From an uncultured Methanosarcinales archaeon (lineage in GTDB: Archaea; Nanobdellota; Nanobdellia; Woesearchaeales; GW2011-AR9): a stretch of DNA of 64,000 nt. Below the pieces are notes generated by a model, which was not told the DNA's origin, made no database searches, and saw only the letters and a program-made list of their open reading frames with translations. The translations under genes and the position numbers were made by a program. Shown here one piece after another: positions 4,120 through 50,948 of this stretch. Location of the stretch: contig CAYFMM010000002.1 in the NCBI GenBank assembly GCA_964344285.1, positions 72-64,071 of the forward strand, written 5' to 3'. Position 1 is the stretch's first letter. The number at the start of each line of letters is the position of its first letter.

Positions 4120-4163
4120 TTTTCTTAATAATTATTTTAAAGTAGATGGGTTTTTGAAGGAAT

Positions 4164-9275: not shown

Positions 9276-10648
9276 GATTGTGCTCTTTTAAGATAATTTC
9301 CAACCACGTTGGGAGGCATACCGTGACTTACTTTTGCCGAAGCTACACGCACACTCCGTATTCCTGCAAGAAGGTTAGCTTGGGCAGAGAAAGTACCTAA
9401 TTCTTCTGTAATCGGAGACAAAGGATTATTAAAACCACGATTTGCAATAACATGAGGTAAGTTTTCTAAACAGTATAAAGCAAAGCGGGCATGTTCGCCC
9501 GATTTAAGAGAGCCAATACTTGCTAATTGTTGTGCAGGAGAAGAAACTTGAACGTGTCCAAAATCATAACCGATTACAAAATCACCACTAACCACATAAG
9601 TGTTTTCCTGCTTGCGATCAATATCTACAAGACATTTAGTCCCTTCAGGTAAATCACGCAATCTCTCTTCTGCTTGAAGATAAGGTTTTTTTAAAGCACG
9701 GAATTGTTGAAGTACATCAGGTGAAGTCTCTTTAGCACGTCCCATCAATTCTTCAAAGGGAATAACCTCAGGGCGAGGGTTAAGAGAATAAAGAAGGTTT
9801 TCTTTTTCTTCTTGTAATAAGATTTGTGCCAACGATGCATTAAATATTGGGACTGCAAGCCCATTTTCCCTTAGTTCTGCAAGGCCAAGGGGACGACTTG
9901 AAGCATATTCAATAAATAGATCTTTACACACACCAGCATACTTTTGAAAGTCTTTAATGTCAATTAATCCCTGGTTTTGTACACCATACGTAATAAGACC
10001 TGCTGTCTCTGATTCATTGTCAACTTCAAGACTATGAGGAACAACAGTAATTGGCCTAAGCAGACTATGTGCTCTTCGTTGTTGTAAATGAACATATTCT
10101 TTTACCAAGTCTAATGTTTTTCCTATTTTAAGATACATTGTTGTAGGACCTAAATCCGCATCAATAGTTGAATAACGAACAACACAACCAGTTCCAGTGT
10201 GAGTGTTGACTGCAACATCTTTTGAATTTCCAGTGGATAAAATATTCGCTGCTACTTCCAACCTATCTTCAGGAACTCCTTTTTTTGCAAGGCGAGAGAT
10301 TAAATCATCAGACCCGACACCAATTACTGATCGAATAGCAGCACGAACAGAAGTTAGATCCGATACAAGTGAATAATCAGCAGAGAGTACTGCATTTTCA
10401 CCATAAAGCACCATAGAAGCGACAGTGTTGGGAGAAGTGATACTTTCAAAAGAACCACCATCCATTTGAGAACGTGAAACACGAACTGCAAGAGTTGCCC
10501 CACTCCCTCTTTCAAGAGAATACAAAGATGCATCACCTACGTGAAGGTAAGGACGCGAATTAGCTTTAGATAGTTTGTTGTATACATTAAGCAGTGCTTG
10601 GGCTGCTTGTGGTGCTGTAGTCCAGTAAACCTGTTGTGAAGATTTCAT
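9263..10648 (-). CDS. Hypothetical 461-aa protein (weak resemblance to TldD/PmbA-family size and composition)
   Basis: Length and Gly/Ser-rich turns are compatible with PmbA/TldD, but no HExxxH motif is present. Treat as unknown. Confidence 0.3.
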   Translation of the reverse strand: MKSSQQVYWTTAPQAAQALLNVYNKLSKANSRPYLHVGDASLYSLERGSGATLAVRVSRSQMDGGSFESITSPNTVASMVLYGENAVLSADYSLVSDLTSVRAAIRSVIGVGSDDLISRLAKKGVPEDRLEVAANILSTGNSKDVAVNTHTGTGCVVRYSTIDADLGPTTMYLKIGKTLDLVKEYVHLQQRRAHSLLRPITVVPHSLEVDNESETAGLITYGVQNQGLIDIKDFQKYAGVCKDLFIEYASSRPLGLAELRENGLAVPIFNASLAQILLQEEKENLLYSLNPRPEVIPFEELMGRAKETSPDVLQQFRALKKPYLQAEERLRDLPEGTKCLVDIDRKQENTYVVSGDFVIGYDFGHVQVSSPAQQLASIGSLKSGEHARFALYCLENLPHVIANRGFNNPLSPITEELGTFSAQANLLAGIRSVRVASAKVSHGMPPNVVGNYLKRAQSHFV

Positions 10649-10754: not shown

Positions 10755-11846
10755 CTAAAAAGAGTTATTTGAATTTATCTGAGAGGAAGCACCCATACCT
10801 GTTGTTTGATCCTTTTGCTCAGTTACTAATTCTTTAAACGCTTCTTCAATTTCTTTGTGTTTCCAACCTGTTTTTTCCATTAAAATTGCACGGATATCTT
10901 CGTCAGTTGTGCCCATTACATGTTCTTTTTTAATCCAAGTTTTAAGTTCTCGTAGATCATACACCATTTTAGGTTTTTTATGATAGTAGATTAGTGCAAT
11001 TAAACCAATGATTGCTGCAAGTAAGATGACACCTGCTCCAATGTAAAGAAGGGTCTTATAACGATCAAAAAATGACGTCGCTGTAGGTTGTTGCTGAGGA
11101 CTTAAAGGGATTTGCGGAGGAAGTAAATCACCTGAAACTCTTGAAGGAAGAAGACCTGAGTCGCCTGCACCACATGTTTTTTGCGTATCAGGTTGTAAAG
11201 CTAGAGTGCTACAAGCGTGTTCATCAACACAAGTCCTTTGTTGAATGCCATTAGAACAAGCTGACCAAGCTGAACAGATCCAAGACTCATCACAAACGTC
11301 ACATTCTTGTGTTTCAATTCTGGGTTGTTTGCCACAAGGACTAATATCAACACATTCCCTTACTTGTTGTAGATCAGAATTACAATATGACCAAGTGCCA
11401 CAACTCCACCTAGCTCTACAAAAATACCCACCACTTCCACCAGAAGAACCACCTGAGCTTCCTGGAGCTGAGCCACCAGAAGTTGGAGGCGGAGCTGCTG
11501 TAGTTGTTGTACAGCCAGGAGAGTTTAAACAGAATAATTGAGACGTACTTCCAGAAACACATTCTACGTTAATAGAATACGTTCCATCTTCAGGATTTGA
11601 AGCAGTGTTATAGGTTCTAGTGTAAGTCCCCACACCTCCTGAAAAATAAATTTGCCTATTGTCTGGACCGATTATTTCAAGAGTCGAGGGTTCTGCACAG
11701 TTAACAACAATGGAAACAATTTCATTATCAAGATAATCAGTTGTTGTACCAATGTCAATGGTTTGAGCCTGAACTAAAGCCAAGGAGAGTAAAACAAGAG
11801 TTAGAAAAATAAAAGTTACACGTTGAGTTCTTGTTATTGTTTGCAT
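10755..11846 (-). CDS. Type I membrane protein: signal peptide, beta-rich ectodomain, G/S linker, two 'WSxCxxxxQxRxC[VI]D' Cys-rich repeats, TM, conserved ~40-aa cytoplasmic tail
   Basis: Signal 'FIFLTLVLLSLALVQAQ'. Linker 'GGSAPGSSGGSSGGSGG'. Repeats 'CGTWSYCNSDLQQVRECVDISPCG' and 'CSAWSACSNGIQQRTCVDEHAC'. TM 'IGAGVILLAAIIGLIALIYY'. Tail 'LKTWIKKEHVMGTTDEDIRAILMEKTGWKHKEIEEAFKEL'. Confidence 0.6.
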   Translation of the reverse strand: MQTITRTQRVTFIFLTLVLLSLALVQAQTIDIGTTTDYLDNEIVSIVVNCAEPSTLEIIGPDNRQIYFSGGVGTYTRTYNTASNPEDGTYSINVECVSGSTSQLFCLNSPGCTTTTAAPPPTSGGSAPGSSGGSSGGSGGYFCRARWSCGTWSYCNSDLQQVRECVDISPCGKQPRIETQECDVCDESWICSAWSACSNGIQQRTCVDEHACSTLALQPDTQKTCGAGDSGLLPSRVSGDLLPPQIPLSPQQQPTATSFFDRYKTLLYIGAGVILLAAIIGLIALIYYHKKPKMVYDLRELKTWIKKEHVMGTTDEDIRAILMEKTGWKHKEIEEAFKELVTEQKDQTTGMGASSQINSNNSF

Positions 11847-11873
11847 TTTATGTTTGAATTTTTAACTAATCTT

Positions 11874-14084
11874 TTAACTTAAGATGATTCCTTGTTCTGT
11901 TGTTTGCACTGCATCTAAACTTTCAGTAAGCACGCCTGATGCATCTGGTGTATAATCAAAAATAATTCTTGCAAAGTTTCTTGCTGCTTGAGACGCTGGT
12001 GCATCTTGAACAAGAACTTCTCTTTGTGCCACGTAATTAGTGCCAGTTGGATTATAGCTGATTAATGCGTCGTAATTTGTTACATCTCTTACAACCTCTC
12101 GTTTGAAAGCAAGGATTACATTATTTGCATCATAGAGTGTTGTGTAAATTGTTAGTTGAGGGATTACTGCACCTGATTCAGAACTAAGTGTAGAACCAAA
12201 ATTCACAGTTGGACTACTTGCAATTACAGGTGGAGCTACACAAGCACCAACATCAATTTGACATGTTACAGGATCACAACTTAGACTTCCTGTTGCTCCA
12301 GCAACTGTTTGAGAAGCACAAGTTGCTGCTCCAAAGTTTGTACCATCACATTCTTCTCCAGCATCAATTACAGTGTTTCCACAGGTTGTTGGAGGAATTG
12401 TTACCGCTGTACAAGTTGCAGTTGTAAGGTCACAGGTTCCAGATGCGCACATTGAGTCAGTAACACAAGTATCACCACCTACCAAGTTTTGACATGCAGC
12501 ATTGCCATCACAATCCAAATCTTCACAATCTACTGGACCGTCACTATCATCATCAAAGCCATCATCACAAATTAATTCTGTTGCGGTAGGAGGAGGAGTT
12601 GTTGTACATTGAGTTACATCAAAATTACAAGTTGCATCACAACTTAACACACCCCCAGTAAAGGTTGAAGCCGGATCATAGTCAGTACAGTCTAGGCCTG
12701 CTGCATAAGAAGGCGTAGCACTGAGATCACATTGTTCAACTGTTGAATCGAATAAGCCGTCGCCACAAGTTGTTGGAAGACTAGAGGTTGGGACACATAG
12801 TTGAGTTGAAGAATCACAGACTCTTCCCGCTGGACAAGCATTAGGATCTAATGGATCGCAAGGTGAAAGGCATGTGTTTAAAGAAGGATCCCATGCACCA
12901 CCTGCTGTTGTACACGCTCCAGAAGTTGTACAACCTATAAGGTTAGTGATATCACAAAAGGAGATCACACAAGTTCCAACGCCAGCAACAGCTGCAGATA
13001 AATCACAAACTTCCCCACCAGAACAATCAGAATCTGTTCGACAAGTACTAGTTGTTGTAAGAGTACAGGAATCACCTAATGTTGGGTCACATGCCCGGCA
13101 TGTCAAGGAGGTTGTATCACACACATTTGTACCTGGACAATCAGTGTCTGTTACACAACTTAAAGCAACACAAGTGTATGTTGGTGTAGCACCAGAATTA
13201 TCACACATAGGAAGAAGAGGATCTGCAGTACAGTGCGCATTTGCAGTACATTCTTGAACAACAATTGGATCACTAATACCATTTGTAATTAAGTCAACAC
13301 TTGCAGTTGAGTCTAGGCTAAAGACATCAAAGGAATTGAAATTAAAATTGTAAGTTCCTGGTGATTGAGGTGCAATAGAGATTAGCGCAACCATAAAATT
13401 GCCAGTTTGTGCATTCGTTGGGTTAAAAGTAGTGTAATCAAAGTCAATTACTGACCCTGTTGCTGTATCAGTACAACTTCCAAGTGGAGTTCCCAAAGAG
13501 GAACTTGTCTCCCAAGTAGATAAACCTGAGCTCTCGACAATCGAGGTCACATCTGCACAACTTAATGAAGGGTCAAGTGCAAGTTGAAACATGACACTTA
13601 CAGTCTCAGCAGTCCCAATGTTTGATCGAATTTCAAGGTTAATATTATCAGAAAGTCCAATGGCAACTGTCGGTGTACTAATTCCTGCAGTGTTTAAATC
13701 TCCAGTATAAAATGCTCTTCCTGCTAATTGATCGGAGAAAAGTAAGAAAAGGCTTAGAATTAAAATTGCAATTACTGCAATACCTGCAATGATCCAGATC
13801 TTTTTGTTTGAGTTTTTTTGGGGCAAATACATCGATTGATTTTGTGTAGCCAATTTTTGTAGAGGAATACGGTTACCAAGATAGGCCTTTGTATTTGTTC
13901 TCTGGTTTATTCTAGTAGGTCTTACGATTCTTTGTGCATCTAATTTTGCTTTTAGTTGTTTTGTTGCAGAAAGGTTAGATCTTTTAGTAGAGCTAACACT
14001 AGAACGGATAGGACGTTTGGAGATCCTTGAAGTCGTTTTTGGTGTTCTTTGTGTCCCTTTTTTCATCGTTCTTTTTTTTGCCAT
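11874..14084 (-). CDS. Type II membrane protein (basic 'MAKKR...' cytoplasmic N-terminus, single TM) with large Cys-rich ectodomain containing Myxococcus-type 'CGDG...GEECD' cysteine-rich repeats
   Basis: TM 'IWIIAGIAVIAILILSLFLLF'. Repeats 'TTCGDGLFDSTVEQCD...' and 'TTCGNTVIDAGEECDGTNFGAATCASQTVAGATGSLSCDPVTCQIDVGAC'. The ORF is 736 aa and Cys-rich. Confidence 0.65.
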   Translation of the reverse strand: MAKKRTMKKGTQRTPKTTSRISKRPIRSSVSSTKRSNLSATKQLKAKLDAQRIVRPTRINQRTNTKAYLGNRIPLQKLATQNQSMYLPQKNSNKKIWIIAGIAVIAILILSLFLLFSDQLAGRAFYTGDLNTAGISTPTVAIGLSDNINLEIRSNIGTAETVSVMFQLALDPSLSCADVTSIVESSGLSTWETSSSLGTPLGSCTDTATGSVIDFDYTTFNPTNAQTGNFMVALISIAPQSPGTYNFNFNSFDVFSLDSTASVDLITNGISDPIVVQECTANAHCTADPLLPMCDNSGATPTYTCVALSCVTDTDCPGTNVCDTTSLTCRACDPTLGDSCTLTTTSTCRTDSDCSGGEVCDLSAAVAGVGTCVISFCDITNLIGCTTSGACTTAGGAWDPSLNTCLSPCDPLDPNACPAGRVCDSSTQLCVPTSSLPTTCGDGLFDSTVEQCDLSATPSYAAGLDCTDYDPASTFTGGVLSCDATCNFDVTQCTTTPPPTATELICDDGFDDDSDGPVDCEDLDCDGNAACQNLVGGDTCVTDSMCASGTCDLTTATCTAVTIPPTTCGNTVIDAGEECDGTNFGAATCASQTVAGATGSLSCDPVTCQIDVGACVAPPVIASSPTVNFGSTLSSESGAVIPQLTIYTTLYDANNVILAFKREVVRDVTNYDALISYNPTGTNYVAQREVLVQDAPASQAARNFARIIFDYTPDASGVLTESLDAVQTTEQGIILS

Positions 14085-14105
14085 TGTAAACCTCTATTTT
14101 ACCTC

Positions 14106-15086
14106 TTAAATTAATCCTGCTGCAGTCATGAAGTTTCTTAGAGATGCAACTACTTGTGAAATTATTTGCCCCACAGATAAGGAGTTATCATTAAGTGTGT
14201 TTGAAATTTCTTGTACTGTTGGAGTACATAAACCCCGTACTTCATCTCTTGCTCCGTCACAAGTACAACCTGAAGCCGCTACGTCTTGGTTATCTGTACA
14301 AGATGTTGCTGGAGGTGGAGTTGTTGCAACTGCACACGTCCCACTTACACATGAACCTGAAGCACACATAGAACTATCATAACAAAAGGAACCATCAGCC
14401 AAGTTAGAACATACACCAATTGTTGCACCGTGACATTGTGTGTCTTGACAATCTATTCTTCCATCCCCATCATTATCATTCCTATCTTGACATAATGCAG
14501 GAGTGTTTTCTGTTGTTGGAGTTGGAGCCGTACAAGCCGATGTATCTATTTGACAGGTTACAGGGTCACAAGATAAACTTCCTCTTGAGCCTGCTCCAAC
14601 TTCAGAAGCGCAAGTTGCTGTCCCAAAGTTTGTGCCGTCACATTCTTCTCCTGCATCAATGTTACCATCCCCACAAGTAGGAGCTGCAACAACACTTAAA
14701 GTAGAAGCTCCAGGTAAAGCAGTTGTTGATCCTTGAAAAATAACTCCACCTGTAAAAACACCTGATGTTGCAGTTGTGGGAGCAGTTACGACATAAGAAT
14801 GAACCGGTGAAGCTGGAATTGAAGTTAATGCCAACTTAAGATTTTGTCCGTTTTGTCTAAAAGAACCTACATCCGAGATTATCCAACCTGCAGGAACTTT
14901 TTCATCAATAGCATAGAAGAGCTCTCCTGCTGCAGGAGTTGCAGTAATTGTAACTGTCACAGTATTCCCTTGAGTCGCTGGGTCTGGACTAAAGGAACGT
15001 GTTGCAGTCCCTGCAAAAGCCATGGGCAGAAGTAGTGCAATTAACGCCACTACGATTATTAATTTCATATTTGTATTTTTCATCAT
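14106..15086 (-). CDS. Secreted protein: beta-sandwich N-domain + Myxococcus-type Cys-rich repeat + 'CQDRNDNDGDGRIDCQD' Asp/Cys-rich module
   Basis: The ORF track runs 14106..15116. I place the likely start at the internal Met giving 'MMKNTNMKLIIVVALIALLLPMAFAG', which removes the overlap with the upstream gene. Repeat 'TCGDGNIDAGEECDGTNFGTATCASEVGAGSRGSLSCDPVTCQIDTSAC'. Confidence 0.55.
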   Translation of the reverse strand: MMKNTNMKLIIVVALIALLLPMAFAGTATRSFSPDPATQGNTVTVTITATPAAGELFYAIDEKVPAGWIISDVGSFRQNGQNLKLALTSIPASPVHSYVVTAPTTATSGVFTGGVIFQGSTTALPGASTLSVVAAPTCGDGNIDAGEECDGTNFGTATCASEVGAGSRGSLSCDPVTCQIDTSACTAPTPTTENTPALCQDRNDNDGDGRIDCQDTQCHGATIGVCSNLADGSFCYDSSMCASGSCVSGTCAVATTPPPATSCTDNQDVAASGCTCDGARDEVRGLCTPTVQEISNTLNDNSLSVGQIISQVVASLRNFMTAAGLI

Positions 15087-15087
15087 C

Positions 15088-15900
15088 TTAGCACCCCGAG
15101 ATATACCAATTATCAATTACTTGGAATAAATCTGTTATAGTTGCAGTACCCGCGTACCAACTGTCGATATAGGAAAATAATTCTGGAACATCAATACAAC
15201 CACTGTTATCTGTATCGCCTAAAAGAGTAGAAACTGTTGTACAACCAGTAGTATCGATTTGACAAGTAGTGGGATTACAAGAGAGAGTTCCTCCAGTAAA
15301 AGAGCCAATATCATCGCATGCAAAACCCTGTAGGTCTGAGCTATCACATTCTTCATTACCCTCTATAATACCGTTCCCACAATTAGGAACAATTATGTTT
15401 ACCGTTCTTTGAGTAGGATCTTGAGAAGCACTAGTGGCGTAAGAACTTCTAAGGGAACCAGAAGCTACCATCCTATTAAAAAAGAATTCTACTGATCTTG
15501 GACTTGTCCCTGCTTGGTAAGTTGCAGTTGCAAATAACAAGTTATTACCAACTACAAAGTTAGTTCCTGAGAGAAGTTCAGGAAGAGGTCTCGTCTCAGC
15601 ATAACGCCATCTAAAATTTTGAGAGACATCATTAATAGTAGATGTAGTTGAAAGTAAATTCTCTCCTTGTTGAGAAATTCTCGTAACTCCACTACTAGAG
15701 TAGTATTCAAATTCTGCATAAGTAAGAGCCTCGTCAGTTGGAACATCCAAATAAACTTGCACATCAAAGGTCTCCCCTACGTAAACAGTTTGAGGGACTA
15801 CAACACGGAAGTTTACAGTTGCTTGAACACTTGTAACAACTAATGAAAATATAATTAATAAGAGTAAGAAAAATTTGAATTTATTGGTTTTTATTTTCAT
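15088..15900 (-). CDS. Secreted cohesin-like N-domain + Cys-rich repeat + C-terminal Ca-loop dockerin-like module
   Basis: Signal 'FKFFLLLLIIFSLVVTSVQA'. N-domain 'TVNFRVVVPQTVYVGETFDVQVYLDVPTDEALTYAEFEY' follows the cohesin strand pattern. Repeat 'CGNGIIEGNEECDSSDLQGFACDDIGSFTGGTLSCNPTTCQIDTTGC'. C-terminus 'GDTDNSGCIDVPELFSYIDSWYAGTATITDLFQVIDNWYISGC' has an EF-hand/dockerin-like DxDxSGxxDxxE loop. Confidence 0.6.
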   Translation of the reverse strand: MKIKTNKFKFFLLLLIIFSLVVTSVQATVNFRVVVPQTVYVGETFDVQVYLDVPTDEALTYAEFEYYSSSGVTRISQQGENLLSTTSTINDVSQNFRWRYAETRPLPELLSGTNFVVGNNLLFATATYQAGTSPRSVEFFFNRMVASGSLRSSYATSASQDPTQRTVNIIVPNCGNGIIEGNEECDSSDLQGFACDDIGSFTGGTLSCNPTTCQIDTTGCTTVSTLLGDTDNSGCIDVPELFSYIDSWYAGTATITDLFQVIDNWYISGC

Positions 15901-15903
15901 AAT

Positions 15904-18195
15904 CTAACACCTAAAACTGGTTTGTGAGGTTCTGCCATTACTACATAAGTGTAAGTCACTAAAAACACGACAAGCTTGCTGATTGCTTGAACCACAATTT
16001 GGTTGAGGGTTGTTGATTAGACTAAATATAAGTTGCTGCACAGCTGCATCTAGTCCATCAAGTATTCCATTACCATCAAAGTCATTGTAAAGATTGTTTG
16101 GCAAGTTTGGATCTTGGCAGGTAAAGGAAGTTTGTCCTGCTTGCCCATTTCTACAGATAAAACCCACTGAATGAGAGCAAGCAGTTTGTTTGTCTATTCC
16201 GCAAGTAGGTTGTGTTGCTGCTCCAGTTACAATTACGCTAAACGCATCTAAATCAAATTGAGTAATATCTCCATCTCCGTTAGTATCCCCTATTGGAAGA
16301 TAAGAAACATAGGTACAAGCCATGTCTAGAGCACAATCATCGTCATTACAATCATATTGTCCATCTAAGTCGTTATCGATTGTATCTGCACATTGCGTTT
16401 CAGTTGTTGGTGCACATCTTGGTAAAGAACTACACTCAGAGTCATCACAATCCACAAACCCATCTTGGTCATCATCCATATTGTTGTCACAAACTTCTAA
16501 AGGAGGCAATTGTGAAGGATTATGAACTGCAAGATTAGCGATTGTTCCTGGAAATAATATAGTGTCATAAACACGAATTTCATCTAAGTGGCCGTTTAAT
16601 CTAGTGCTTGCTTCTGCACCAAAGAAGAGTGTTTGAGCATTAGCCGTCCTTAAATTTAAGTAATCAGTCCCTTGTTTATTTGCACTCCCAGTAGTTGCAT
16701 ATGGGACTGAATAAGCTGGAGCTGCAAATCCATTTACTGTAAGTGTATGGCTAAAACCCTGAACGATGTTGCCCGGAAGAATCGGGTCTATTTGAATTGC
16801 AATATGGTTCCATTGATTAGGCCTAATTCCGGACTTAGTCATTGCTTGATTTCCGTTAACATACAATTGAACTGCACCATCAGCATAGAATAAAGACAGG
16901 AATGCAGTCGTCCTTGTGGGCGGTAGTTTACTAGAACCCCATTGTAAAATCCCTTGACTTGTAAGAGAAGATGTTGGTTTAAACCAGAAACTAATTGTGC
17001 GAGAAGTAGTTAATTGCCGAGGAAAGGCGTAAGGAATTGATAAAAAGCTAGAGCCAGGTGTTGCATATGCACCACGTTGTGTCGAATAAGTATTTAAAAT
17101 ACCATCTGTTGGAATAACTGATGCAGATCCAATAACACTTGCAGTAGTTGCTGTTAATGTTCCTTGGTTTGTGATTCTTGAGCCACTTGTTTGCGCGGTA
17201 AAAGGGAAGTAAAGCTCCACTGGAAGAGTTGCAAGGTTTTGGACAATCTGAGTTTGAGTTGATGTATCAGAAGTAGTTTGAATTGGTGTTTCTGTTGAGC
17301 CTAATTTATCAAGTAGAGAACCTCCAACTGCCCCCGCAGGCTCTAAGCCCCTAATAGGGTCTTTTTGAAGATCTGAAACCAACCCTTTAATTTCACTACA
17401 AGGAGTGTATTGAGAAGGCCAAGGAGAAGTTACACCAGACTGCACCTCTTGACAACCCGTTATATCCAATGTACCAAAAGCATTATTCCTTCCTGAAATT
17501 CGTGATGCAACGTTACATACAACATCTGATTCTGAATTAAAACAAACCTGGTTATCCTGGATTGTTGAAAGATCTGCGTTATTGATTACAAGACCTTGTT
17601 TATTGCCATGAATACGATTATTTGATAATTCTAAACGTTTAGGAGAACTTAGTACAATTCCAAAGACATTTGAAGTGAGTGTATTTTCAGTTAATTTTAG
17701 GTCAGTGATTGAGACTTCTTTGTTTAAACTAGTTGCCTGAATTGCAAAATCATAATTTGTAAAAGTACAACCCTGGATTGTTACACTATTGCTCTTGATT
17801 AATGCACCATAATCACCTTGAGATGCACTGCCATCAATTGTAAAACCTGGTTCACATTTTATTGTCACTGCACGATTTTCAATGTTAAAGCAAGTTTGTC
17901 CCTTAGAAGCTAAGTCAGTAATCACACGATACTCTACAAAAGGTTCAAGCTCAATCCCTTCATCAGTCGGGCATGCTGTTAATTCTTTAATTGGTTTTCC
18001 ACTTTGACAAATCCCAGATACGCAAGATTCTCCTGGATAACAATCTGCATTAACTTTACAAGCAGAACCAATTGCTTGTCCAAATAAGTTGCCAGTCCCT
18101 GAAACATTAAAGTAAAGGAGAAGCGAAGCTAAAAAGATGATACCAACAGAGATACTCGCTATTAACCAAGCCTTATGTTTATCCACCATGTACAC
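15904..18195 (-). CDS. Large surface protein: signal anchor, right-handed beta-helix (pectate-lyase-like) repeats, LamG/ConA-like lectin domain, Asp/Cys-rich module, two dockerin-like Ca-loop modules each followed by a 4-Cys segment
   Basis: Beta-helix 'LSNNRIHGNKQGLVINNADLSTIQDNQVCFNS'. LamG-like 'TISFWFKPTSSLTSQGILQWGSS...LYVNGNQAMTKSG...WNHIAIQ'. Asp/Cys module 'CDNNMDDDQDGFVDCDDSEC...CADTIDNDLDGQYDCNDDDC'. Dockerin-like loops 'GDTNGDGDITQFDLDAFSVIV' and 'NDFDGNGILDGLDAAVQQLIFSLIN'. Confidence 0.6.
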   Translation of the reverse strand: MYMVDKHKAWLIASISVGIIFLASLLLYFNVSGTGNLFGQAIGSACKVNADCYPGESCVSGICQSGKPIKELTACPTDEGIELEPFVEYRVITDLASKGQTCFNIENRAVTIKCEPGFTIDGSASQGDYGALIKSNSVTIQGCTFTNYDFAIQATSLNKEVSITDLKLTENTLTSNVFGIVLSSPKRLELSNNRIHGNKQGLVINNADLSTIQDNQVCFNSESDVVCNVASRISGRNNAFGTLDITGCQEVQSGVTSPWPSQYTPCSEIKGLVSDLQKDPIRGLEPAGAVGGSLLDKLGSTETPIQTTSDTSTQTQIVQNLATLPVELYFPFTAQTSGSRITNQGTLTATTASVIGSASVIPTDGILNTYSTQRGAYATPGSSFLSIPYAFPRQLTTSRTISFWFKPTSSLTSQGILQWGSSKLPPTRTTAFLSLFYADGAVQLYVNGNQAMTKSGIRPNQWNHIAIQIDPILPGNIVQGFSHTLTVNGFAAPAYSVPYATTGSANKQGTDYLNLRTANAQTLFFGAEASTRLNGHLDEIRVYDTILFPGTIANLAVHNPSQLPPLEVCDNNMDDDQDGFVDCDDSECSSLPRCAPTTETQCADTIDNDLDGQYDCNDDDCALDMACTYVSYLPIGDTNGDGDITQFDLDAFSVIVTGAATQPTCGIDKQTACSHSVGFICRNGQAGQTSFTCQDPNLPNNLYNDFDGNGILDGLDAAVQQLIFSLINNPQPNCGSSNQQACRVFSDLHLCSNGRTSQTSFRC

Positions 18196-18286
18196 CTTCT
18201 TTTTAGAGAAAAAGAAGTATACAGAGACTTATAAATGTATCGTTATAGCGACGAGGAGGTTTAGAGTTAGAAAAAGAAGATAAAAA

Positions 18287-18946
18287 TTAGCAACCATTAG
18301 TATACCAGTTATCAATCACATTAAAAAGATAATTTGTTTCAATTATGTTAAGGTACCAACCATCAATAAAGGAAAACAATTCCGGAACTCCAACGCAGCC
18401 ATCCCCAGTTGTGTCCCCAATAATAACAGAAGGAGAAGAAATTACAAGAATTCGGTTTTGAGAGACTGAAGAATCAAAAAAAGAATTTCTTGTAACAGTT
18501 GCACCAAAAGGAGCAGAAGTAGTTGGAAGATCTAGAATAAACGAGCCAGGAAGATAAGATACTGCATCGATGGTTGCAAGTAGACTATTACCCTGGAATG
18601 CAATCCCTCCCGATACATCCATTTCAGAAAAAGACCAAGAATTATATCCGTAAGGTGATTGTTCAAGGCCCGTGCTCGTTATTTCCACCTGAGATGTTTG
18701 AAACATATTATTTGAATTAGCAGACAAAAAAACTACCTCCAAAGGATTTCCTGTTCCAATTGCAGTAAGTTCAAAATCTGCTCCCGTTATTGTTTCTGAG
18801 ATGGGAACATTAACATAGATTTCAATTTGAAAAGGTTGCCCTTGTTGCACAGTGGAAGGAGCATCAATAGAGAATTCAACTACTGCCAAAGTAGAGACCA
18901 TGCTAACCAGAAAAAAGGTAAATAAGAAAATTAATGTAGAGCGCAT
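18287..18946 (-). CDS. Secreted cohesin-like N-domain + C-terminal dockerin-like module (paralog of 15088..15900)
   Basis: N-domain 'AVVEFSIDAPSTVQQGQPFQIEIYVNVPISETITGADFEL'. C-terminus 'GDTTGDGCVGVPELFSFIDGWYLNIIETNYLFNVIDNWYTNGC' is near-identical in architecture to the C-terminus of 15088..15900. Confidence 0.6.
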   Translation of the reverse strand: MRSTLIFLFTFFLVSMVSTLAVVEFSIDAPSTVQQGQPFQIEIYVNVPISETITGADFELTAIGTGNPLEVVFLSANSNNMFQTSQVEITSTGLEQSPYGYNSWSFSEMDVSGGIAFQGNSLLATIDAVSYLPGSFILDLPTTSAPFGATVTRNSFFDSSVSQNRILVISSPSVIIGDTTGDGCVGVPELFSFIDGWYLNIIETNYLFNVIDNWYTNGC

Positions 18947-18947
18947 T

Positions 18948-20054
18948 TTATTTTTTCAAAAATTTATCAACCTTAAGAGGATCCCATCCCCTAGCAACAA
19001 GTCTCGATTTAATCATCTGACCATTCATCCCTCGTTGTTTTGACTTAGTAATGTATTCCTTTAGCGGTGCATATTTTTTGTTATTTGAACGAATTAAGAT
19101 AATAGCTACTACAACAAGTGCAAGCAGTGTTACTCCACTAACTACTGCAGCAACCCACGGAAATTTTGAACTAGAATCAGTATTGCCACCTGCTAAAGGT
19201 TGTGCATCTTGACAAAGTACAAGTAAGGGATCACAAGTACCAGGACAAATTTGTAATATATCGTATCCAGACCCATCAAAGGAACATTGCTCAATTACAT
19301 CACCGTTACATCTTTTTGTATTTGGTTCACAGAACTGTTGTGCTGCTGCAACCCGAGAGGGTTGACAAGTTCTTGATTCTTCAGGTTTAGGTATTTGTGT
19401 AACGTTCATGGTTGCAGGATTACAGTTGTCAATTCTTACACAAGTTCTTGTTTGTTGCGCTCCCTGACATGTTGTCCAACCACTACATTGCCAGTTATAC
19501 CTACAAGTCGTACTTGATTCTTGTGCTGAGGTTGTATCAGAAGAACGAGAACTACCACTTCTTCTTGAACTCCCTGAGCTACTTGGACTGTCTGAATCTG
19601 AAGAATCGGAATCAGAATCCGAACCTGAAGTAGTGTCGTCAGTAGTACCAGTATCACTTGAGTCTGAAGTTGCGGGAGCAAGATAATCCAAATTAAATTG
19701 TTCTACAGTTCCAGCAGAATATGTTGCTGTGCCCACAGGTTGACGAGTTCCAAAAGTATCAAGAACAAAAAAAGTTAAAGTTGCATCTTGAGCAGTGCGA
19801 ACCTTCAAAGTAGGAGAATACCCATATTGAGCATTGGAAATTTGAGTTCTTGTTAGTTCTGTTCCAGAAGACTCCACCACTAAAATAAAAGTGCCAAGAG
19901 GAAGATTTTGAATTGAGCCATAAAATTGATGAAAATCAGTTAAGGACGGAGGGTTGTTTTGTGCCACTGCAAGAGAGGCTAATGAGAAAAGCATACAGAG
20001 AACTATAAGTAATGTTAAAAAACGCTGCAAGGTTGTTTTGCTTCCTTGGTTCAT
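18948..20054 (-). CDS. Type I membrane protein: signal peptide, ectodomain, Ser/Asp-rich linker, WxC Cys-rich repeat region, TM, conserved cytoplasmic tail (paralogous architecture to 10755..11846)
   Basis: Start taken at the internal Met 'MNQGSKTTLQRFLTLLIVLCMLFSLASLAVAQN', an ATGA 4-nt overlap with the upstream gene. The ORF track extends to 20099. Linker 'SDSSDTGTTDDTTSGSDSDSDSSDSDSPSSSGSSRRSGSSRSS'. Cys repeat 'CRYNWQCSGWTTCQGAQQTRTCVRIDNC'. Tail 'LKEYITKSKQRGMNGQMIKSRLVARGWDPLKVDKFLKK' aligns with the tail of 10755..11846. Confidence 0.6.
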   Translation of the reverse strand: MNQGSKTTLQRFLTLLIVLCMLFSLASLAVAQNNPPSLTDFHQFYGSIQNLPLGTFILVVESSGTELTRTQISNAQYGYSPTLKVRTAQDATLTFFVLDTFGTRQPVGTATYSAGTVEQFNLDYLAPATSDSSDTGTTDDTTSGSDSDSDSSDSDSPSSSGSSRRSGSSRSSDTTSAQESSTTCRYNWQCSGWTTCQGAQQTRTCVRIDNCNPATMNVTQIPKPEESRTCQPSRVAAAQQFCEPNTKRCNGDVIEQCSFDGSGYDILQICPGTCDPLLVLCQDAQPLAGGNTDSSSKFPWVAAVVSGVTLLALVVVAIILIRSNNKKYAPLKEYITKSKQRGMNGQMIKSRLVARGWDPLKVDKFLKK

Positions 20055-21631
20055 TGTAATGTATACCTCATTGTTAAGCCACTTGTCGAGTAAATCCAAT
20101 AAGGCCTTCCAGGGATAAGAGGGGTCGTTGGATCAACTTGCGTACAGACATAATTTTGTGCACACGAAAATAGGTTAAACTGTTGTTGTCCTACAAAGTC
20201 AGTAAGTGGCCTTGGCACAATTCCAGGAATGGAAATTAAATTCCACTGAGGTGCAATGATTCTTGTTTGCTCAGTAGGTGAAGGGACAAGTGAAGCAGGC
20301 ATTAAATCTTGTACATTACAAGTAAAGGAAACAGTAGTTGCTTGGGCATTTGTTAATTCTAGGAAATATCCTTCAAAAAGATTGAATTGTGAAATATCAC
20401 CAGGAGAGTTTTGTGATGCCACTACTGGTGCTCCATTGTTAAATGAATAAATTCTTGCTATCTCTGGGTTAGCTGTAAGGAACCGATCAACTTGAGGGCT
20501 TGTTGGAAGACAAGGAAATGCTAGAGGCTGAAGTTGTGTTGTTGCTCTAAGAGTTGCTTCAAATGTTGCTGTTGTTGCAGTAGTAGAAGTCATGCGTAAA
20601 GCAGGGTAATTTTGTTGTTGTTGTGCAAAGACAACATTGCCAACAGCAAAGGTGTAATAGGCATGTGTCTGTTGGGATTGAACGGTTGCAACGATGTCAA
20701 GAACTGCCGCAGTCGAGGAAGAGGGGGCCTGCCAAGAGAAACGTGCAGAGGTAGAATTGTCTACTAATCGTTGTTGAAGATTTGTTAATGGAAGTGCAGA
20801 AGTTTGTCCATTTACTGTGATTTGTGCAGTTATGTCTGGCGAAGTTACACTTGTTGCATTGATGATTCCAGAAAAGGTAGCACCTGGCTGTAAGGAGATG
20901 ATTGGAGTCTGAGCAGTTCTTGGAGGCGCCAAAGTTGCATCAAACACTTCCACAGCAGAAGGTGCTGCATTAACATAGTGTAAGTTTGTAACAGTGATTT
21001 GATTATTTTGAAGTGTTACTTGAAGGTCTGCAATTGGATCTGCTGTAGTGAGGTGAAGGACGGTATTATCGTTTGGAAGGGTAACTTGGTCACGTACTAT
21101 GATCCGATTTGGGTTTGCAGGAGTAGTTGCAGGATAACTTGTTTGAATTGTAAAATTGTAAGTTGGTTGTTGAGCTGCACTAAGAGTTGAAGATGGTTTT
21201 TGTTGAATTGTAAAATTATAGGTCCTATGCGTGAATGAAAGAGGGTCATCAGTAATATTAAAAGTCACAGTCACCGGATTTTGTGGAAGTGTCGTAAAGA
21301 TAAAAGATTCTTCCGTTACTAAGTTTACAGGAGCAATTACTGGCTGAGAGCCAAAGAAGATTGCTTGCCCTACCTGTCCAGAGTAAAACGTCCCAAAGAG
21401 AACAACAACAATGATTAAAAGCAAAGCTATGCTTACAAACATAAAGATACCTTTACCAGATTTTTTTTCTTCGTTAAATTGAGTTGTTGTGTTTTGAGCA
21501 GAAGCACCATTACTAGAAGGAGTAGAGGAGTTAGAAGAAGATCCAGATTGTAATTGTTCTTCAGCTTTCTTTTTAAGGAGAGCTTTTGCAGTTGCTCTTG
21601 TACTCGCTTTTGATGCTGTTGTTTTTGCCAT
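20051..21631 (-). CDS. Type II membrane protein ('MAKTTASK...' basic/Ser-rich cytoplasmic N-terminus, one TM) with beta-rich repetitive ectodomain
   Basis: TM 'IFMFVSIALLLIIVVVLFGTFY'. Internal repeats 'RTYNFTIQQ.../PTYNFTIQTS...'. Many NxT/S sequons. Confidence 0.55.
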   Translation of the reverse strand: MAKTTASKASTRATAKALLKKKAEEQLQSGSSSNSSTPSSNGASAQNTTTQFNEEKKSGKGIFMFVSIALLLIIVVVLFGTFYSGQVGQAIFFGSQPVIAPVNLVTEESFIFTTLPQNPVTVTFNITDDPLSFTHRTYNFTIQQKPSSTLSAAQQPTYNFTIQTSYPATTPANPNRIIVRDQVTLPNDNTVLHLTTADPIADLQVTLQNNQITVTNLHYVNAAPSAVEVFDATLAPPRTAQTPIISLQPGATFSGIINATSVTSPDITAQITVNGQTSALPLTNLQQRLVDNSTSARFSWQAPSSSTAAVLDIVATVQSQQTHAYYTFAVGNVVFAQQQQNYPALRMTSTTATTATFEATLRATTQLQPLAFPCLPTSPQVDRFLTANPEIARIYSFNNGAPVVASQNSPGDISQFNLFEGYFLELTNAQATTVSFTCNVQDLMPASLVPSPTEQTRIIAPQWNLISIPGIVPRPLTDFVGQQQFNLFSCAQNYVCTQVDPTTPLIPGRPYWIYSTSGLTMRYTLQ

Positions 21632-21653: not shown

Positions 21654-24600
21654 TTATCTTCTTACTTCCACTTCAGTATAATAATTATTGTTTGCCCTAT
21701 CTTCGTTAATTTTTTGTACAATGATTTGAATTGCTTGCCCATCTAAAGTAATAGCCCTTGTATCTCCTTGTGCAAATAAACGATCAAGGATTACTTGTCG
21801 AGGAGTTGCAGAGACATCTGTTATTCGGAGATTGATTAAATCCGTGGGAGTTGCTGTTAATTGTAACACGTATTGATTTCCAGCAGGAGTTGTTACAAAA
21901 TCAAGTAAGCTTGCAGGGAAGGCTCCAACAGTAGAAGTATGGTTAATAGCAATACTTGAACCGTCAGTAGGAACTACGTTGTACGAACGTAGTGCGAATG
22001 TTGCATCAACCGTTCTTTCGTTGATTGGCCCACTTAAGGATTGAGTAATGTCAACAATATTTTGTCCAAGTAAAAGAGTCCCACTTGAAAGGATTGGAGA
22101 TTGCGATTGTATATTTTGAATAGAACTTAATTGTCCTGCAGGATAAGATTGCATTGCAAAGTTTTGTAATAAGCTATCTTGTGCCACTGGTTGGTATAGG
22201 GCGCCTGAGATATTAAACACAGGAACGTCGTTATTAATTACTTGCCCAGTAAAAGCAGTCCAGTTGGTTGGGCCATATGCAGGATTAGTTGAATCTATTC
22301 TTGTTACTTTTCTAATTGTTACTTGTTTATTTTCTCGCGTTAGACCATTTGATTCCAAGACATATTCTTGACCAGCTAAAGTAAGGTATTCATTCCCATC
22401 CACTACAAGTTGTTGCGCTGCTGTAGCTCCCCAACAAACATTTGCTGCAGTTAGGTCTTGGTAAATTTGTTGGTTACATAACTGGAAGCGTTGATTATTG
22501 ATTAAAACACTGTTAGTAGTTGTAAGAGTAAAAGAGTTTTGAGCAACAAAGTTAAGGCTATCTCTAATATCTTGAGAGAGGTAGTAAAATCTAATGACCC
22601 TATTTGGACCTGGAGAACTAGGAATAATAAATTCCACATCCCCTTGAGGGAGAGAGAACATTGCAACTAAGTCTCCATTTCGAGTTTCTAAAGTTGGCTG
22701 ATACACTTGTTGATGGTCTAATGAATAAATTCTTATTTGCTGCATGTCAAAAATTTGAGTTTGTGTATTTTGAGCAGCATAACCAACTGCATAATAGACA
22801 ATTGCATTGGTAATCGGAGTTGTAACTGCAAGAGCAAATTCATTACCGCTGGTTAAATTATTAACAAAGTATTCATCAAATGTACGTTGAGCATAACCAA
22901 GAATATTTGGAACATCATATCTCCTGTAAATAGATACTGTTTTAATAGGAGTATTTCCGTTAACTTGAATGTTGTCGTAATAATATAAGTACGGTCCTCG
23001 CTGAAGAGGTTGTTGATAATTTAGAGAAACTGGTGTTCCACCCACATCTAATTGGAACGTTGGCTGAAACGTTGCAAGATCATTTTGTGCAACTGCAACT
23101 ACCCCTTCGTTTTGAGGAGAAGTAATCCTCACAGGTGTTTGTGAAGACATAGAGACAAAGAGTTGTCCATTTAAATCAACTGGAGTGTCAACTACTTGTT
23201 GAGCTGTTAATGCACTAATTTGGAATGGAGGTGGAGGGACACCATAGTTTCGTTGGATAGTGATTCTTCCTCCATTTAGAGTTGAAAAGTGTGCAATATC
23301 TTCACTGCCAGTTGCAGGGATAGTAGTTTGTCCCGAAGCAGTATAATGAACTAAGTTAATGCTTTGTAAAGATAATTGTGTTTGTTGGGGATGTTCTAGT
23401 AAGTAGACATTATTTTGAAAGCGCACTGCTTTTCTTCTACCTGCAATCATTGCGTTAATAAAGTCATTGTAATTGAGATTAGATTGTGTATTTGCTAAGT
23501 CTGTAAGTGTGAAGATAGATACTTTCTTTTCATTTCCATCATGTTGATAGAGAAATGCATAATCTGTTGTTTGTCCACCTGCAGTCACTGGAAGCACTGT
23601 TAAGACATCACGACGCAGAGTTGCAAGAGTTTGTGCGCCCGCTCCTTGATCATTACATAGTAATGCTTGTTGTAAGTCTGCAGAATTGTCTTGACGGCAG
23701 ATAGTGAGTACACCTAGTGGGTTTGATGCAGGAGTTGTGATGTCAACGGGAGCATTAAGAGCTACTTGAATTTCGTGATCTTGTTCCAAGTTAAAAGGAG
23801 TTACAAAGTTTGCAGGTGCTTCTCCAACATTTCCTGCACGGACCATTACCTGTCCTTGGTTAATTGTGACTATAATTGTCCTACTATTTTCCACATCAAA
23901 GACATAACTATTTGTTCCGGCGTATTGTTGAGCAGCATACGTGGTTAACCTTGGAATGTGGCGAAGTTGGAGCTGATCTAGTGAGAATAAAGTTTGTCCT
24001 GAAGCATGAGTTAATTCATAATATTGATTTTCTAAGACGAATAAAAGAGACTGTCCTTGAATCAAATTTTGTGAAAATATGCCTAAAGGGAATTGAATAC
24101 CTTGTCCCCCTACAGAGATAGAGTTTGTTAGAATTGCATCTACTTGTTTTTGTGATCCTTGAGTCGGTTGTTGATAAAGAAAAGTTATTTGCTGATTCGT
24201 AGTCGGGTTTCTATTTGCATTACGGAGCACAGAAAGTGATTCTATTGGATTTTGTGGAGAACCTTGCAAGCAGACAGTTGCCCTATCTGCTACAGATTGT
24301 GTCCCTTGGTCACAAAGGTAAAGGCCGGGGTGTATCGAAGATCCTCCGGCAGTAGCCGCACCAATATAAGTATTAATGTTGTAACATCCATCATCTTGTA
24401 AAGTGAGAGAGTATGATGCATCAAAGTGAAATCTTTCGTCAAAAATAGTTGTAGGATTTACATTAGGATTACAGATTTGCCATTGTCCGCTACTACAATA
24501 AGCTTTCTCACCACCAGTAGTTGTTCTGATTAATCCTTGAATTTCAGGTGTATTATCGCATTGTTCCCAATCTCCAGAGGGAGTACAAAATAAATTACCC

Positions 24601-24977
24601 ATAACGCCAGTCCCTGCTCCTTCTGAAAAACAATTTAGCCCTCCAAACTTCATGGCACAACTTGCTTGACTTGGGCAACATAATTCTAAAGGAACAAAAG
24701 AAGATGGCACTTCAAAATTACCTGTAGAAGGGTTGTATTGATTAATTCTGCTTGAGATCAATTGGCTTCCTGAAGAACATGATTGACCAGTAAGTACAGT
24801 ACCAACTCCTAAAAAAGCTTGTCCTGCTAAGGCTTGATTAAAGTCTTGATCTTGTTGTGAGTCTATAGCACTTGGAGAATAGTAAAAAGAAGCAACAATA
24901 CCTAAAATCACAACAAAAATGAGAGACGTAACTAGAACGGTCTTTCTATTTGCCTCTTTTCCACTCTTTAATGCCAC
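21654..24977 (-). CDS. 1107-aa signal-anchored surface protein with Cys-rich N-terminal module and long beta-rich Gln/Asn/Thr-rich ectodomain
   Basis: N-terminus 'MALKSGKEANRKTVLVTSLIFVVILGIVASFYY'. Cys cluster in the first ~230 aa. No enzymatic motif recognised. Confidence 0.55.
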   Translation of the reverse strand: MALKSGKEANRKTVLVTSLIFVVILGIVASFYYSPSAIDSQQDQDFNQALAGQAFLGVGTVLTGQSCSSGSQLISSRINQYNPSTGNFEVPSSFVPLELCCPSQASCAMKFGGLNCFSEGAGTGVMGNLFCTPSGDWEQCDNTPEIQGLIRTTTGGEKAYCSSGQWQICNPNVNPTTIFDERFHFDASYSLTLQDDGCYNINTYIGAATAGGSSIHPGLYLCDQGTQSVADRATVCLQGSPQNPIESLSVLRNANRNPTTNQQITFLYQQPTQGSQKQVDAILTNSISVGGQGIQFPLGIFSQNLIQGQSLLFVLENQYYELTHASGQTLFSLDQLQLRHIPRLTTYAAQQYAGTNSYVFDVENSRTIIVTINQGQVMVRAGNVGEAPANFVTPFNLEQDHEIQVALNAPVDITTPASNPLGVLTICRQDNSADLQQALLCNDQGAGAQTLATLRRDVLTVLPVTAGGQTTDYAFLYQHDGNEKKVSIFTLTDLANTQSNLNYNDFINAMIAGRRKAVRFQNNVYLLEHPQQTQLSLQSINLVHYTASGQTTIPATGSEDIAHFSTLNGGRITIQRNYGVPPPPFQISALTAQQVVDTPVDLNGQLFVSMSSQTPVRITSPQNEGVVAVAQNDLATFQPTFQLDVGGTPVSLNYQQPLQRGPYLYYYDNIQVNGNTPIKTVSIYRRYDVPNILGYAQRTFDEYFVNNLTSGNEFALAVTTPITNAIVYYAVGYAAQNTQTQIFDMQQIRIYSLDHQQVYQPTLETRNGDLVAMFSLPQGDVEFIIPSSPGPNRVIRFYYLSQDIRDSLNFVAQNSFTLTTTNSVLINNQRFQLCNQQIYQDLTAANVCWGATAAQQLVVDGNEYLTLAGQEYVLESNGLTRENKQVTIRKVTRIDSTNPAYGPTNWTAFTGQVINNDVPVFNISGALYQPVAQDSLLQNFAMQSYPAGQLSSIQNIQSQSPILSSGTLLLGQNIVDITQSLSGPINERTVDATFALRSYNVVPTDGSSIAINHTSTVGAFPASLLDFVTTPAGNQYVLQLTATPTDLINLRITDVSATPRQVILDRLFAQGDTRAITLDGQAIQIIVQKINEDRANNNYYTEVEVRR

Positions 24978-50364: not shown

Positions 50365-50374
50365 GGGTATAATA

Positions 50375-50947: not shown

Positions 50948-50948
50948 A

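Follow-up and report, generated by a model that had tools for sequence, protein, structure and literature searches.

A predicted split cohesin-fold scaffold and membrane anchors with a three-helix cytoplasmic tail in a surface-protein operon of a Woesearchaeales genome

Introduction

Cohesin folds are already known from archaea, as are archaeal surface proteins that are anchored by transmembrane (TM) helices. Attachment to other cells is the way of life of DPANN archaea, and hardly any of their surface proteins have been annotated. Here we describe a locus on a stretch of 64,000 nucleotides (the window), which comprises positions 72 to 64,071 of contig CAYFMM010000002.1 (GenBank assembly GCA_964344285.1, filed as an uncultured Methanosarcinales archaeon, GTDB order Woesearchaeales). 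Two gene pairs on its minus strand, A and B, each consist of a gene for a putative type II membrane protein followed by a gene for a putative type I membrane protein. The ectodomains of the type I proteins harbor Cys-containing repeats (WxC repeats), and their C-termini form a tail of ~45 amino acids (aa). We propose that pair A encodes the two halves of a surface scaffold with a cohesin-fold domain, whose anchor cassette, also present in pair B, ends in a small cytoplasmic domain. In the literature no description of the tail, the WxC repeat or the gene pair was found. Likewise, neither a description nor a curated model was found for the three-helix tail family with its Gly-Trp (GW) signature, for the coupling of this tail to the WxC stalk, or for the split/fused cohesin-anchor gene.

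Results

Pair A, a two-gene unit with fused counterparts

The four open reading frames (ORFs) of the two pairs were recovered at the coordinates given in the initial annotation of the window. Pair A comprises the following elements:

11874..14084, minus strand: type II A gene (736 aa) with a basic N-terminus of 95 aa, a TM helix, the motif LAGRA, a predicted cohesin-fold domain, Cys-rich modules and a C-terminal beta domain
13734..13799, minus strand: N-terminal TM segment of type II A, residues ~96-117
13248..13721, minus strand: predicted cohesin-fold domain of type II A, residues 122-279
11877..12239, minus strand: C-terminal domain (C-domain) of type II A, residues ~616-736
10755..11846, minus strand: type I A gene (363 aa), the last gene of the operon, with a signal peptide, a beta-rich N-domain, a Gly-rich linker, two WxC repeats, a Pro/Gln stalk, a TM helix and the three-helix tail
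11511..11765, minus strand: N-domain of type I A, residues 28-112
11211..11420, minus strand: two WxC four-Cys repeats of type I A, residues 143-171 and 185-212
10980..11060, minus strand: C-terminal TM helix of type I A, residues ~263-289, followed by HKKPK
10824..10961, minus strand: tail domain A, residues 296-341, with the A-type signature W..E...GT[ST]..DI..IL...TGW...EI...F

The same arrangement was detected in L001 and in at least 12 of 42 GTDB loci, where a gene of 470-760 aa directly precedes a type I A homologue of ~330 aa. At its N-terminus, the product of the upstream gene has a basic segment (often LPPH[ST]xE.HP...GE..K), which is followed by a TM helix and the motif FVGKA. Other genomes contain a single gene instead, as in L044 (823 aa), L030, L028, L014, L008 and P0004. 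The N-terminal part of these fused forms matches residues ~60-340 of type II A with E-values down to 3e-28 and the C-terminal part residues 143-345 of type I A with E~1e-48. Among the top 150 representatives bearing the tail, 24 fused forms were counted. They are built in the order basic N-terminus, TM helix, VGKA motif, cohesin-fold domain, optional Cys-rich spacers, WxC repeats, TM helix and tail. In at least 13 related loci with split genes, a C-domain of ~95 aa, encoded immediately upstream of the type I gene, abuts an N-domain of ~85 aa of the type I protein. This N-domain is restricted to type I proteins of the split form, and the fused proteins are devoid of both domains. The comparisons establish pair A as a conserved two-gene unit of Woesearchaeota/Nanoarchaeota metagenome-assembled genomes (MAGs) and, at the level of sequence, as the split form of proteins that are encoded by single genes elsewhere. 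Because both genes are fused into one in other genomes, type II A can be regarded as the putative cohesin-bearing half and type I A as the stalk and anchor half of one surface scaffold.

The AlphaFold model of the membrane-proximal domain of type II A, residues 122-279 (predicted local distance difference test [pLDDT], 83.6; predicted template modelling score [pTM], 0.80) exhibits the nine-stranded flattened beta-sandwich with jelly-roll topology by which a cohesin fold is recognized. In a Foldseek search with this model, the top 24 PDB matches were all cohesins (E=3.2e-6 to 6e-4; template modelling scores ~0.55-0.75), and the archaeal cohesin 2xdh of Archaeoglobus fulgidus was found at rank 31 (E=1.1e-3). 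Two conserved Cys residues are located inside the domain. As a separate observation, the junction of upstream C-domain and type I N-domain occurs twice in L037 over a distance of less than 8 kb (2154-2870 and 6548-7152), and hence true duplication of the split pair does occur elsewhere.

A common anchor cassette of the type I proteins

The type I protein of pair B is encoded by the following sequences:

18948..20054, minus strand: type I B gene (368 aa) with a signal peptide, an N-domain, a Ser/Asp-rich linker, one WxC repeat, a further Cys-rich region, a TM helix and the tail
19422..19505, minus strand: WxC repeat of type I B, residues 184-211
19086..19154, minus strand: C-terminal TM helix of type I B, residues ~301-323, followed by RSNNKK
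18951..19079, minus strand: tail domain B, residues 326-368, of the general type L.eYI.....G....I...L...GW....V

BLASTP aligned type I A with type I B over 205 aa (E=2e-10, 25% identity), from the WxC repeat through TM helix and tail to the C-terminus. The alignment identifies the two proteins as paralogues, which share a C-terminal cassette predicted to consist of one or more WxC repeats, a Pro/Gln-rich stalk, a TM helix and the ~45-aa tail. As it begins only at the WxC repeat, the N-domains are considered unrelated. The repeats of type I A read CRARWSCGTWSYCNSDLQQVRECVDISPC and CDESWICSAWSACSNGIQQRTCVDEHAC, the sole repeat of type I B reads CRYNWQCSGWTTCQGAQQTRTCVRIDNC. The Cys motif W(S/T)xCxxxxQQxRxC[VI], previously noticed in both ectodomains, is indeed present in either protein; as a pattern it turned out to be too strict, since the spacing from C to QQ varies by one residue and the second repeat of A contains QQRTC. 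The repeat was found together with A-type tails in 58 of 86 proteins and with other tails in eight of 60. It recalls the thrombospondin type-1 repeat, a short extracellular Trp/Cys-rich stalk or adhesion module with the spacing W..W..C....Q.R.C; we mention this as a lead only. Pfam TSP_1 gave no match at E≤1.

Hydrophobicity profiles (Kyte-Doolittle) and the positive-inside rule agreed with the type I and type II topologies that had been assigned to the four proteins. According to these predictions, both type I proteins possess short signal peptides ending with VQA/AVA, and in both the tail domain begins ~8-10 residues below the membrane. The type II proteins have basic N-termini of 95 aa (736-aa protein) and 60 aa (526-aa protein), each followed by one TM helix.

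Homologues were retrieved by searches with the full-length proteins, which are unbiased toward the tail. They revealed identities of 37-52% in the tail and 46-52% in the WxC repeats, compared to 17-34% in the N-domains and 7-37% in the TM helices. Judged by these values, conservation in both type I proteins is highest in the tail and the WxC repeats. Close homologues are rare: three were obtained for type I A and two for type I B, all of them with the tail, and in addition the tail-less P0010. The exact protein sequences of all four ORFs are present in public collections without names. In P0010 (Woesearchaeota HZC31_03490), which is related to type I B, the N-domain, an acidic linker, the WxC repeat and the TM helix are kept, and the cytoplasmic tail is rich in Pro, Gln and Tyr and not of the three-helix type. 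Thus, the tail is an exchangeable module, as a different one can be attached to a B-like body.

The tail domain

When only the two tails were compared, 23% of the residues were identical (Smith-Waterman z=4.6), a score reached by four of 5000 shuffles. A profile was made independently from 67 third-party tails, the A-type, B-family and window tails all being left out. Among the 538 six-frame segments of the window, it matched the tails of A and B with E=1.2e-11 and 6.7e-10, respectively, so that the tail similarity asserted in the initial annotation is statistically significant. One further match, a weak one, was located in the segment 51577-52263, at the N-terminus of ORF 51574-52197.

The extent of the family was determined by searching 1.84 billion cluster representatives with a 7-sequence tail profile, which yielded 1,541 representatives at E≤1e-3 and 159 at E≤1e-10. 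Among the top 151 proteins, the domain resides at most 30 aa from the C-terminus in 142, and a TM helix is situated at most 40 aa upstream of it in 108; 50 of them contain multiple copies, in tandem arrays of 2-10. Exceptions are some soluble arrays and some arrays on polytopic membrane proteins. Large members carry NosD/beta-helix and Ig-like ectodomains, and in P0016 a PGF-pre-PGF domain is combined with a TM helix and tails. Wherever a source is named, the member is listed as 'hypothetical protein' and comes from Woesearchaeota or Nanoarchaeia. With a degenerate DNA pattern that represents the A-type tail, 42 GTDB species genomes were hit, mostly labelled Woesearchaeota, Nanoarchaeota or Nanoarchaeia. 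The notion of a conserved intracellular motif on surface proteins was borne out, the tails being homologous and positioned C-terminally after a TM helix.

For 82 aligned tails, AlphaFold predicted a three-helix bundle (pLDDT 85) with helices at positions 3-16, 20-29 and 35-45. The residues G17, I23, L27 and G32-W33 are each retained in at least 90% of these tails. Both window tails exhibit all features by which we define the GW tail, namely a three-helix unit of ~45 aa with L..[YW]I, G17, I23, L27 and G32-W33, situated not more than 40 aa after a C-terminal TM helix. The conserved polar residues (GTSxxD, TGW..E) are located at expected helix-cap positions. Net charges range from -9 to +10 across the tails, with a mean of -3.4 +/- 2.2 for the A-type and about +10 for tail B. 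The best PDB sequence matches were de novo designed HHH miniproteins (8vl3, 8skx) and also coiled coils; the resemblance to the designed proteins is consistent with an idealised, probably stable bundle. No Pfam or NCBIfam model covered either window tail, even at E≤10. A homologue search with the 82-tail alignment gave 21 candidates and one match, short domains sharing too few 5-mers, and Pfam scans of tail proteins with unusual architectures disclosed no informative cytoplasmic partner domain. Taken together, the profile test and the family search demonstrate a genuine, un-curated domain family, which appears to be the typical C-terminal close of single-pass surface proteins of Woesearchaeota and Nanoarchaeia. 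They support the view that the tail is a cytoplasmic module in wide use among such proteins.

Several known domains were considered as the identity of the tail and rejected. Models of the RecX repeat (PF21982/PF02631/PF21981) did not match the window tails at E≤10, and RecX 3c1d gave E=0.98 against the tail profile. RecX, moreover, has three tandem repeats in a soluble RecA-binding regulator, as opposed to the single copy after a TM helix on the secreted window proteins. UBA (PF00627) was dismissed as the window tails did not match it and their loop reads G-[TM]-[TSN] rather than MGF/Y. A PGF-CTERM/archaeosortase signal was excluded by the lack of a PGF motif ahead of the TM helix, by the folded 45-aa domain after it, and by the lack of an NCBIfam PGF-CTERM match. 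SHOCT was also considered and discarded. Relatives with tandem arrays exceed the gathering cutoff of Pfam RecX_HTH1 (P0147, 35.6 bits; P0011, 48 bits) and show partial matches to NCBIfam RecX as well as weak ones to UBA and DUF494. The tail family may be a distant relative of the RecX-type three-helix repeats.

The ORF with the weak tail-like match (51574-52197, minus strand, 207 aa) possesses the N-terminal sequence VEEVQNLRAQGLTDSVIMEELTQKGLSPDAVNQAI (52066-52167), which is weakly related to the tail domain (E~1e-5 in the window) and gives a weak match to RecX_HTH2. A Pro-rich linker and a coiled coil follow. The ORF adjoins one for a ZapB-like coiled-coil protein (52181-52750), and a gene for a T2SSE/FlaI-type ATPase (52767-55085) is divergent to it. 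The 207-aa product is a candidate for a soluble partner of the tails. Next to this ATPase/coiled-coil cluster, three tandem paralogous genes for membrane proteins of ~190 aa each were observed on the plus strand (49795-51518).

Pair B and its relation to pair A

The type I B gene is preceded by two further genes:

20051..21631, minus strand: type II B gene (526 aa) with an N-terminus of 60 aa, a TM helix, the motif VGQA and an ectodomain without family match; not homologous to type II A
21654..24977, minus strand: gene of a surface protein of 1107 aa, first gene of the packed run, with an N-terminal TM helix and the motif AGQA; a homologue lies ahead of the B pair in L004

The best alignment of type II A with type II B (E=0.16) was confined to the TM helix and the GxA motif behind it, and the cohesin profile did not match type II B. 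The order of the 1107-aa gene, type II B and type I B is kept in the metagenomic contigs L002-L007; a fused form of pair B was not seen. The data characterize pair B as a second unit, evidently assembled independently, in which the same anchor cassette stands behind an unrelated ectodomain gene. The idea of a duplicated gene pair applies therefore to the C-terminal cassette of the type I proteins (WxC, TM helix, tail) and fails for the type II members. For the same reason, the upstream partners being unrelated, a modular expansion by copying of the pair could not be upheld; the pairing as such is still meaningful for A, which is fused elsewhere.

Neighbouring genes and operon structure

Between the two pairs, four genes for further extracellular proteins are located:

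18287..18946, minus strand: secreted protein of 219 aa, paralogue of the 270-aa protein, with the C-terminal motif GDTTGDGC..VPELFSFIDGWY
15904..18195, minus strand: protein of 763 aa with an N-terminal TM helix, the motif FGQA, a NosD beta-helix, LamG and a C-terminus with two Ca-loop-like DxNGDG motifs
15088..15900, minus strand: secreted protein of 270 aa with a DUF4215-type Cys repeat and an EF-hand/dockerin-like C-terminus
14106..15116, minus strand: secreted protein of 336 aa with a Cys-rich block in common with type II A

The paralogy of the 219-aa and 270-aa proteins was evident (E=2e-16). Their common C-terminal motif, GDT..(G/S)GC..VPELFS[FY]ID.WY....LF.VIDNWY..GC, is EF-hand/dockerin-like, and the N-domains of the 270-aa and 219-aa proteins weakly match the cohesin profile (E=0.003 and 0.02, respectively). 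The Cys-rich block of type II A (residues 567-627) is 68% identical over 62 aa to residues 147-208 of the 336-aa protein. This DUF4215-like block, TCG..IDAGEECDGTNFG.ATCAS...GSLSCDPVTCQID, is encoded at ~12200-12390 and ~14540-14680 on the minus strand. A second module, ..C.D..D.D.DG..DC.D..C, is also common to both proteins, and these shared modules point to a recent exchange within the operon. Together with the common C-terminal cassette and the paralogy of the 219-aa and 270-aa proteins, the Cys-rich block suggests that the locus grew by module shuffling and not by copying of a two-gene unit.

Nine minus-strand ORFs extend from 24977 to 10755 with intergenic gaps of at most 91 nt. The stop codon of type II B and the start codon of type I B overlap (ATGA, 20051-20054), and an oligo-T tract follows the last gene (10755 end). 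The nine packed ORFs are most likely co-transcribed. They belong to a longer minus-strand run of genes for secreted and surface proteins (10755-38452), which encloses both pairs and also includes an S8 subtilase with CARDB/PKD (1525 aa) and a CARDB/Ig protein (2482 aa).

The window is archaeal DNA with a GC content of ~38%. Among its genes are those for FtsZ, ribosomal protein S6e, a SepF-like protein and a regulator of the AbrB/MazE-PhoU type. MAGs labelled Candidatus Woesearchaeota (L010, L022, L048) contain an FtsZ with 89-92% identity to that of the window, which identifies the organism as a DPANN archaeon of the Woesearchaeota type. In several genomes, FtsZ, a nitroreductase-like gene and S6e are found only a few kb away from the last gene of the operon, a member of the type I A family (window 588-5429 versus L010, L021, L022, L030, L048 and L049), which indicates that the chromosomal position of the surface-protein operon is conserved. 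Insertions specific for the window are a 461-aa ORF, the AbrB-PhoU gene and a Ser/Thr kinase (6773-10648). L008, L013, L014, L019-L021 and others (~20 MAGs titled 'uncultured Methanosarcinales archaeon', TPA_asm) carry Woesearchaeota-type genes. S6e and a partial FtsZ of L021 are 81% and 82% identical to those of the window, and the organism label of such records looks wrong.

A second class of N-terminal signals

The 736-, 526-, 763- and 1107-aa proteins start with an N-terminal signal of a second class (13713-14084, 21365-21631, 18073-18195 and 24813-24977, respectively, minus strand). It consists of a basic segment of 10-95 aa, a hydrophobic helix of ~20 aa and the motif [FLV][VAF]G[KQR]A 5-20 residues on, which reads LAGRA, VGQA, FGQA and AGQA in the four proteins. 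On the remaining proteins of the operon, signal peptides are short and of the usual kind. Homologues in other genomes contain the conserved cytoplasmic sequence LPPH[ST]xE.HP..A.GE..K ahead of the helix. The unit of basic segment, helix and GxA may represent a special cleavage or sorting signal.

Discussion

The locus as a whole is best explained by a split cohesin scaffold and an anchor cassette with the tail as cytoplasmic foot, a reading to which we assign a probability of roughly 0.55. The operon would build a surface complex, in which the cassette of WxC stalk, TM helix and tail serves as membrane anchor. The cohesin domain would hold partners, possibly the 763-, 270- and 219-aa proteins. 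The halves of pair A may re-associate through the domains that flank the break, namely the type II A C-domain and the type I A N-domain. We envisage the tail as a small, very stable foot, which would fix the C-in topology and might hold or cluster the anchors by tail-tail contacts or by a common partner. Tandem arrays on giant adhesin-like proteins would then be a reinforced version of this foot.

Some results weigh against this explanation. Pfam Cohesin (PF00963) did not match the 736-aa type II A protein at E≤1 in hmmscan, so that the cohesin assignment depends on the predicted fold. The dockerin side is weak as well: the C-terminus of the 763-aa protein stays below the cutoff of Dockerin_1 (PF00404; E=0.02, 15.5 bits, cutoff 22.9), that of the 270-aa protein only gave EF-hand matches (E=0.006), and that of the 219-aa protein matched neither model. 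An assembly of the cohesin-dockerin type with these three candidate partners is reasonable but unproven. As to the tail, Foldseek searches with its model retrieved no significant structural neighbour from PDB and BFVD, the fold being generic, and its net charge is not conserved across the family. Capping of helix N-termini can account for the conserved polar residues, and a purely structural or topological role of the tail is accordingly possible. Both the top-150 list and the taxonomic picture are biased to the lineage that supplied the query profile.

An important alternative concerns the type II proteins, which might be cleaved after GxA, the N-terminus acting as an extended signal peptide. 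They would then be secreted, and the cohesin protein would be held only by the type I anchor or, in fused forms, by the C-terminal TM helix and tail. Type I signal peptidases follow a small-x-small rule, to which G at -3 and A at -1 of GxA conform. The motif is present in all four proteins of the second signal class and in essentially all split and fused homologues, and residues 1-4 (GRAF) of the modelled cohesin domain are outside the fold with pLDDT <50. Cleavage would also make the logic of pairing and fusion simple, with one anchor per complex. Nonetheless, the hydrophobic segment of ~20 residues has the length of a TM helix, n-regions of 95 aa and 60 aa (736-aa and 526-aa proteins) with LPPH[ST]xE.HP kept in homologues are unusual for a cleaved Sec signal, and the invariance of GxA in the alignments A4 and A5 exists by construction, as a regular expression for the motif had served to extract the sequences. 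We hold such processing for possible rather than probable. A different origin of the locus, namely tandem duplication of a two-gene cassette (type II and type I) with subsequent divergence, might be read from two arrangements of identical order on the same strand 7 kb apart, from the paralogy of the type I genes and of the 219-/270-aa genes, and from the two junction copies of L037. This course is improbable in view of the unrelated N-domains of type I A and type I B, the separate synteny of each pair elsewhere, the limitation of the type II similarity to TM helix and GxA, and the failure of the cohesin profile on type II B. With type II A and type II B being unrelated, the arrangement is not a duplicated two-gene cassette.

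Other alternatives assign a different role to the tail. It had been supposed that a conserved tail implies a shared cytoplasmic partner. In tblastn searches with all window ORFs against 49 related loci, no conserved downstream or cytoplasmic neighbour of the tail genes emerged, merely the positional synteny with FtsZ and S6e; with polar residues at cap positions and charges varying from negative to positive, this supposition is not sustained by our data, and the missing neighbour also counts against a partner-binding foot. We deem it unlikely that the tail is a dedicated DPANN cytoplasmic adaptor, which would couple cohesin/adhesin-like surface complexes to an intracellular partner (e.g., the membrane skeleton or the division/pilus machinery, with ORF 51574-52197 as a candidate) and thereby provide outside-in anchoring or signalling during host attachment. 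Even more doubtful is a membrane-tethered nucleic-acid-binding helix-turn-helix (HTH) domain related to RecX repeats, by which the type I proteins would be surface receptors that either signal directly to DNA or RNA, or bring nucleic acids to the membrane. Helices 2-3 with their G-W turn do resemble an HTH, tail B has a net charge of about +10, and the array-bearing relatives score with RecX_HTH1 and partially with NCBIfam RecX. The window tails themselves, however, match neither RecX, HTH nor UBA at E≤10 (RecX 3c1d, E=0.98), Foldseek found no significant HTH neighbour, A-type tails are acidic on average, and the proteins that bear the tail, at a distance of 8-10 residues from the membrane, are structural and adhesin-like. 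The range of charges from -9 to +10 argues against a general nucleic-acid-binding role. Finally, Lys/Glu-rich amphipathic helices after a TM helix could resemble each other by chance, as the modest pairwise alignment of the tails and their best PDB matches, designed helical proteins and coiled coils, might insinuate. A merely compositional resemblance is effectively refuted by the profile of third-party tails, which picks out both tails (E~1e-10 to 1e-11) with hardly another match in the window; the residues G17, I23, L27 and G32-W33, the confident fold prediction and the constant C-terminal position after a TM helix speak against it, too.

The split scaffold with its anchor cassette is of use beyond this locus. 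The tail family, comprising at least 1,500 unnamed cluster representatives, marks the cytoplasmic end of single-pass surface proteins and can be employed to find and orient them in metagenomes. The clean case of split and fusion ties a cohesin-fold protein to a membrane anchor and predicts a physical complex that is testable. If the tail does have a common partner, it would provide a first handle on how wall-less tiny cells tie their adhesion apparatus to the interior.

Among known systems, the scaffoldins with cohesins (cellulosome type I/II; archaeal 2xdh) resemble type II A by their fold and by being surface proteins encoded beside proteins with Ca-loops or dockerin-like ends. Unlike them, type II A and type I A would be anchored by TM helices and a cytoplasmic three-helix tail instead of SLH domains or sortase, and, in contrast to cellulosomal scaffoldins, the scaffold is divided between two genes of an operon without carbohydrate-active enzymes. 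Archaeal C-terminal anchors (PGF-CTERM, plain S-layer TM anchors) have, like the type I proteins, a hydrophobic C-terminal helix followed by basic residues on large secreted proteins. Such sorting signals end few residues past the TM helix and are removed, whereas the type I proteins continue with a folded 45-aa domain or, in other members, with an array of domains. RecX repeats and the tail family have in common three-helix units of ~40-45 aa, tandem occurrence and the pattern G-[FY]-s..eI...L...G; the tail differs by its connection to the TM helix of surface proteins, the GW signature and the lack of an association with RecA. UBA-like bundles (the Pex14 N-domain, designed HHH miniproteins) share size and topology with the tail, and weak UBA matches occur in array members. 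The tail is distinguished from UBA-like, Pex14 and HHH bundles by the lack of a significant sequence or structure match and by its juxtamembrane site in an archaeal surface protein.

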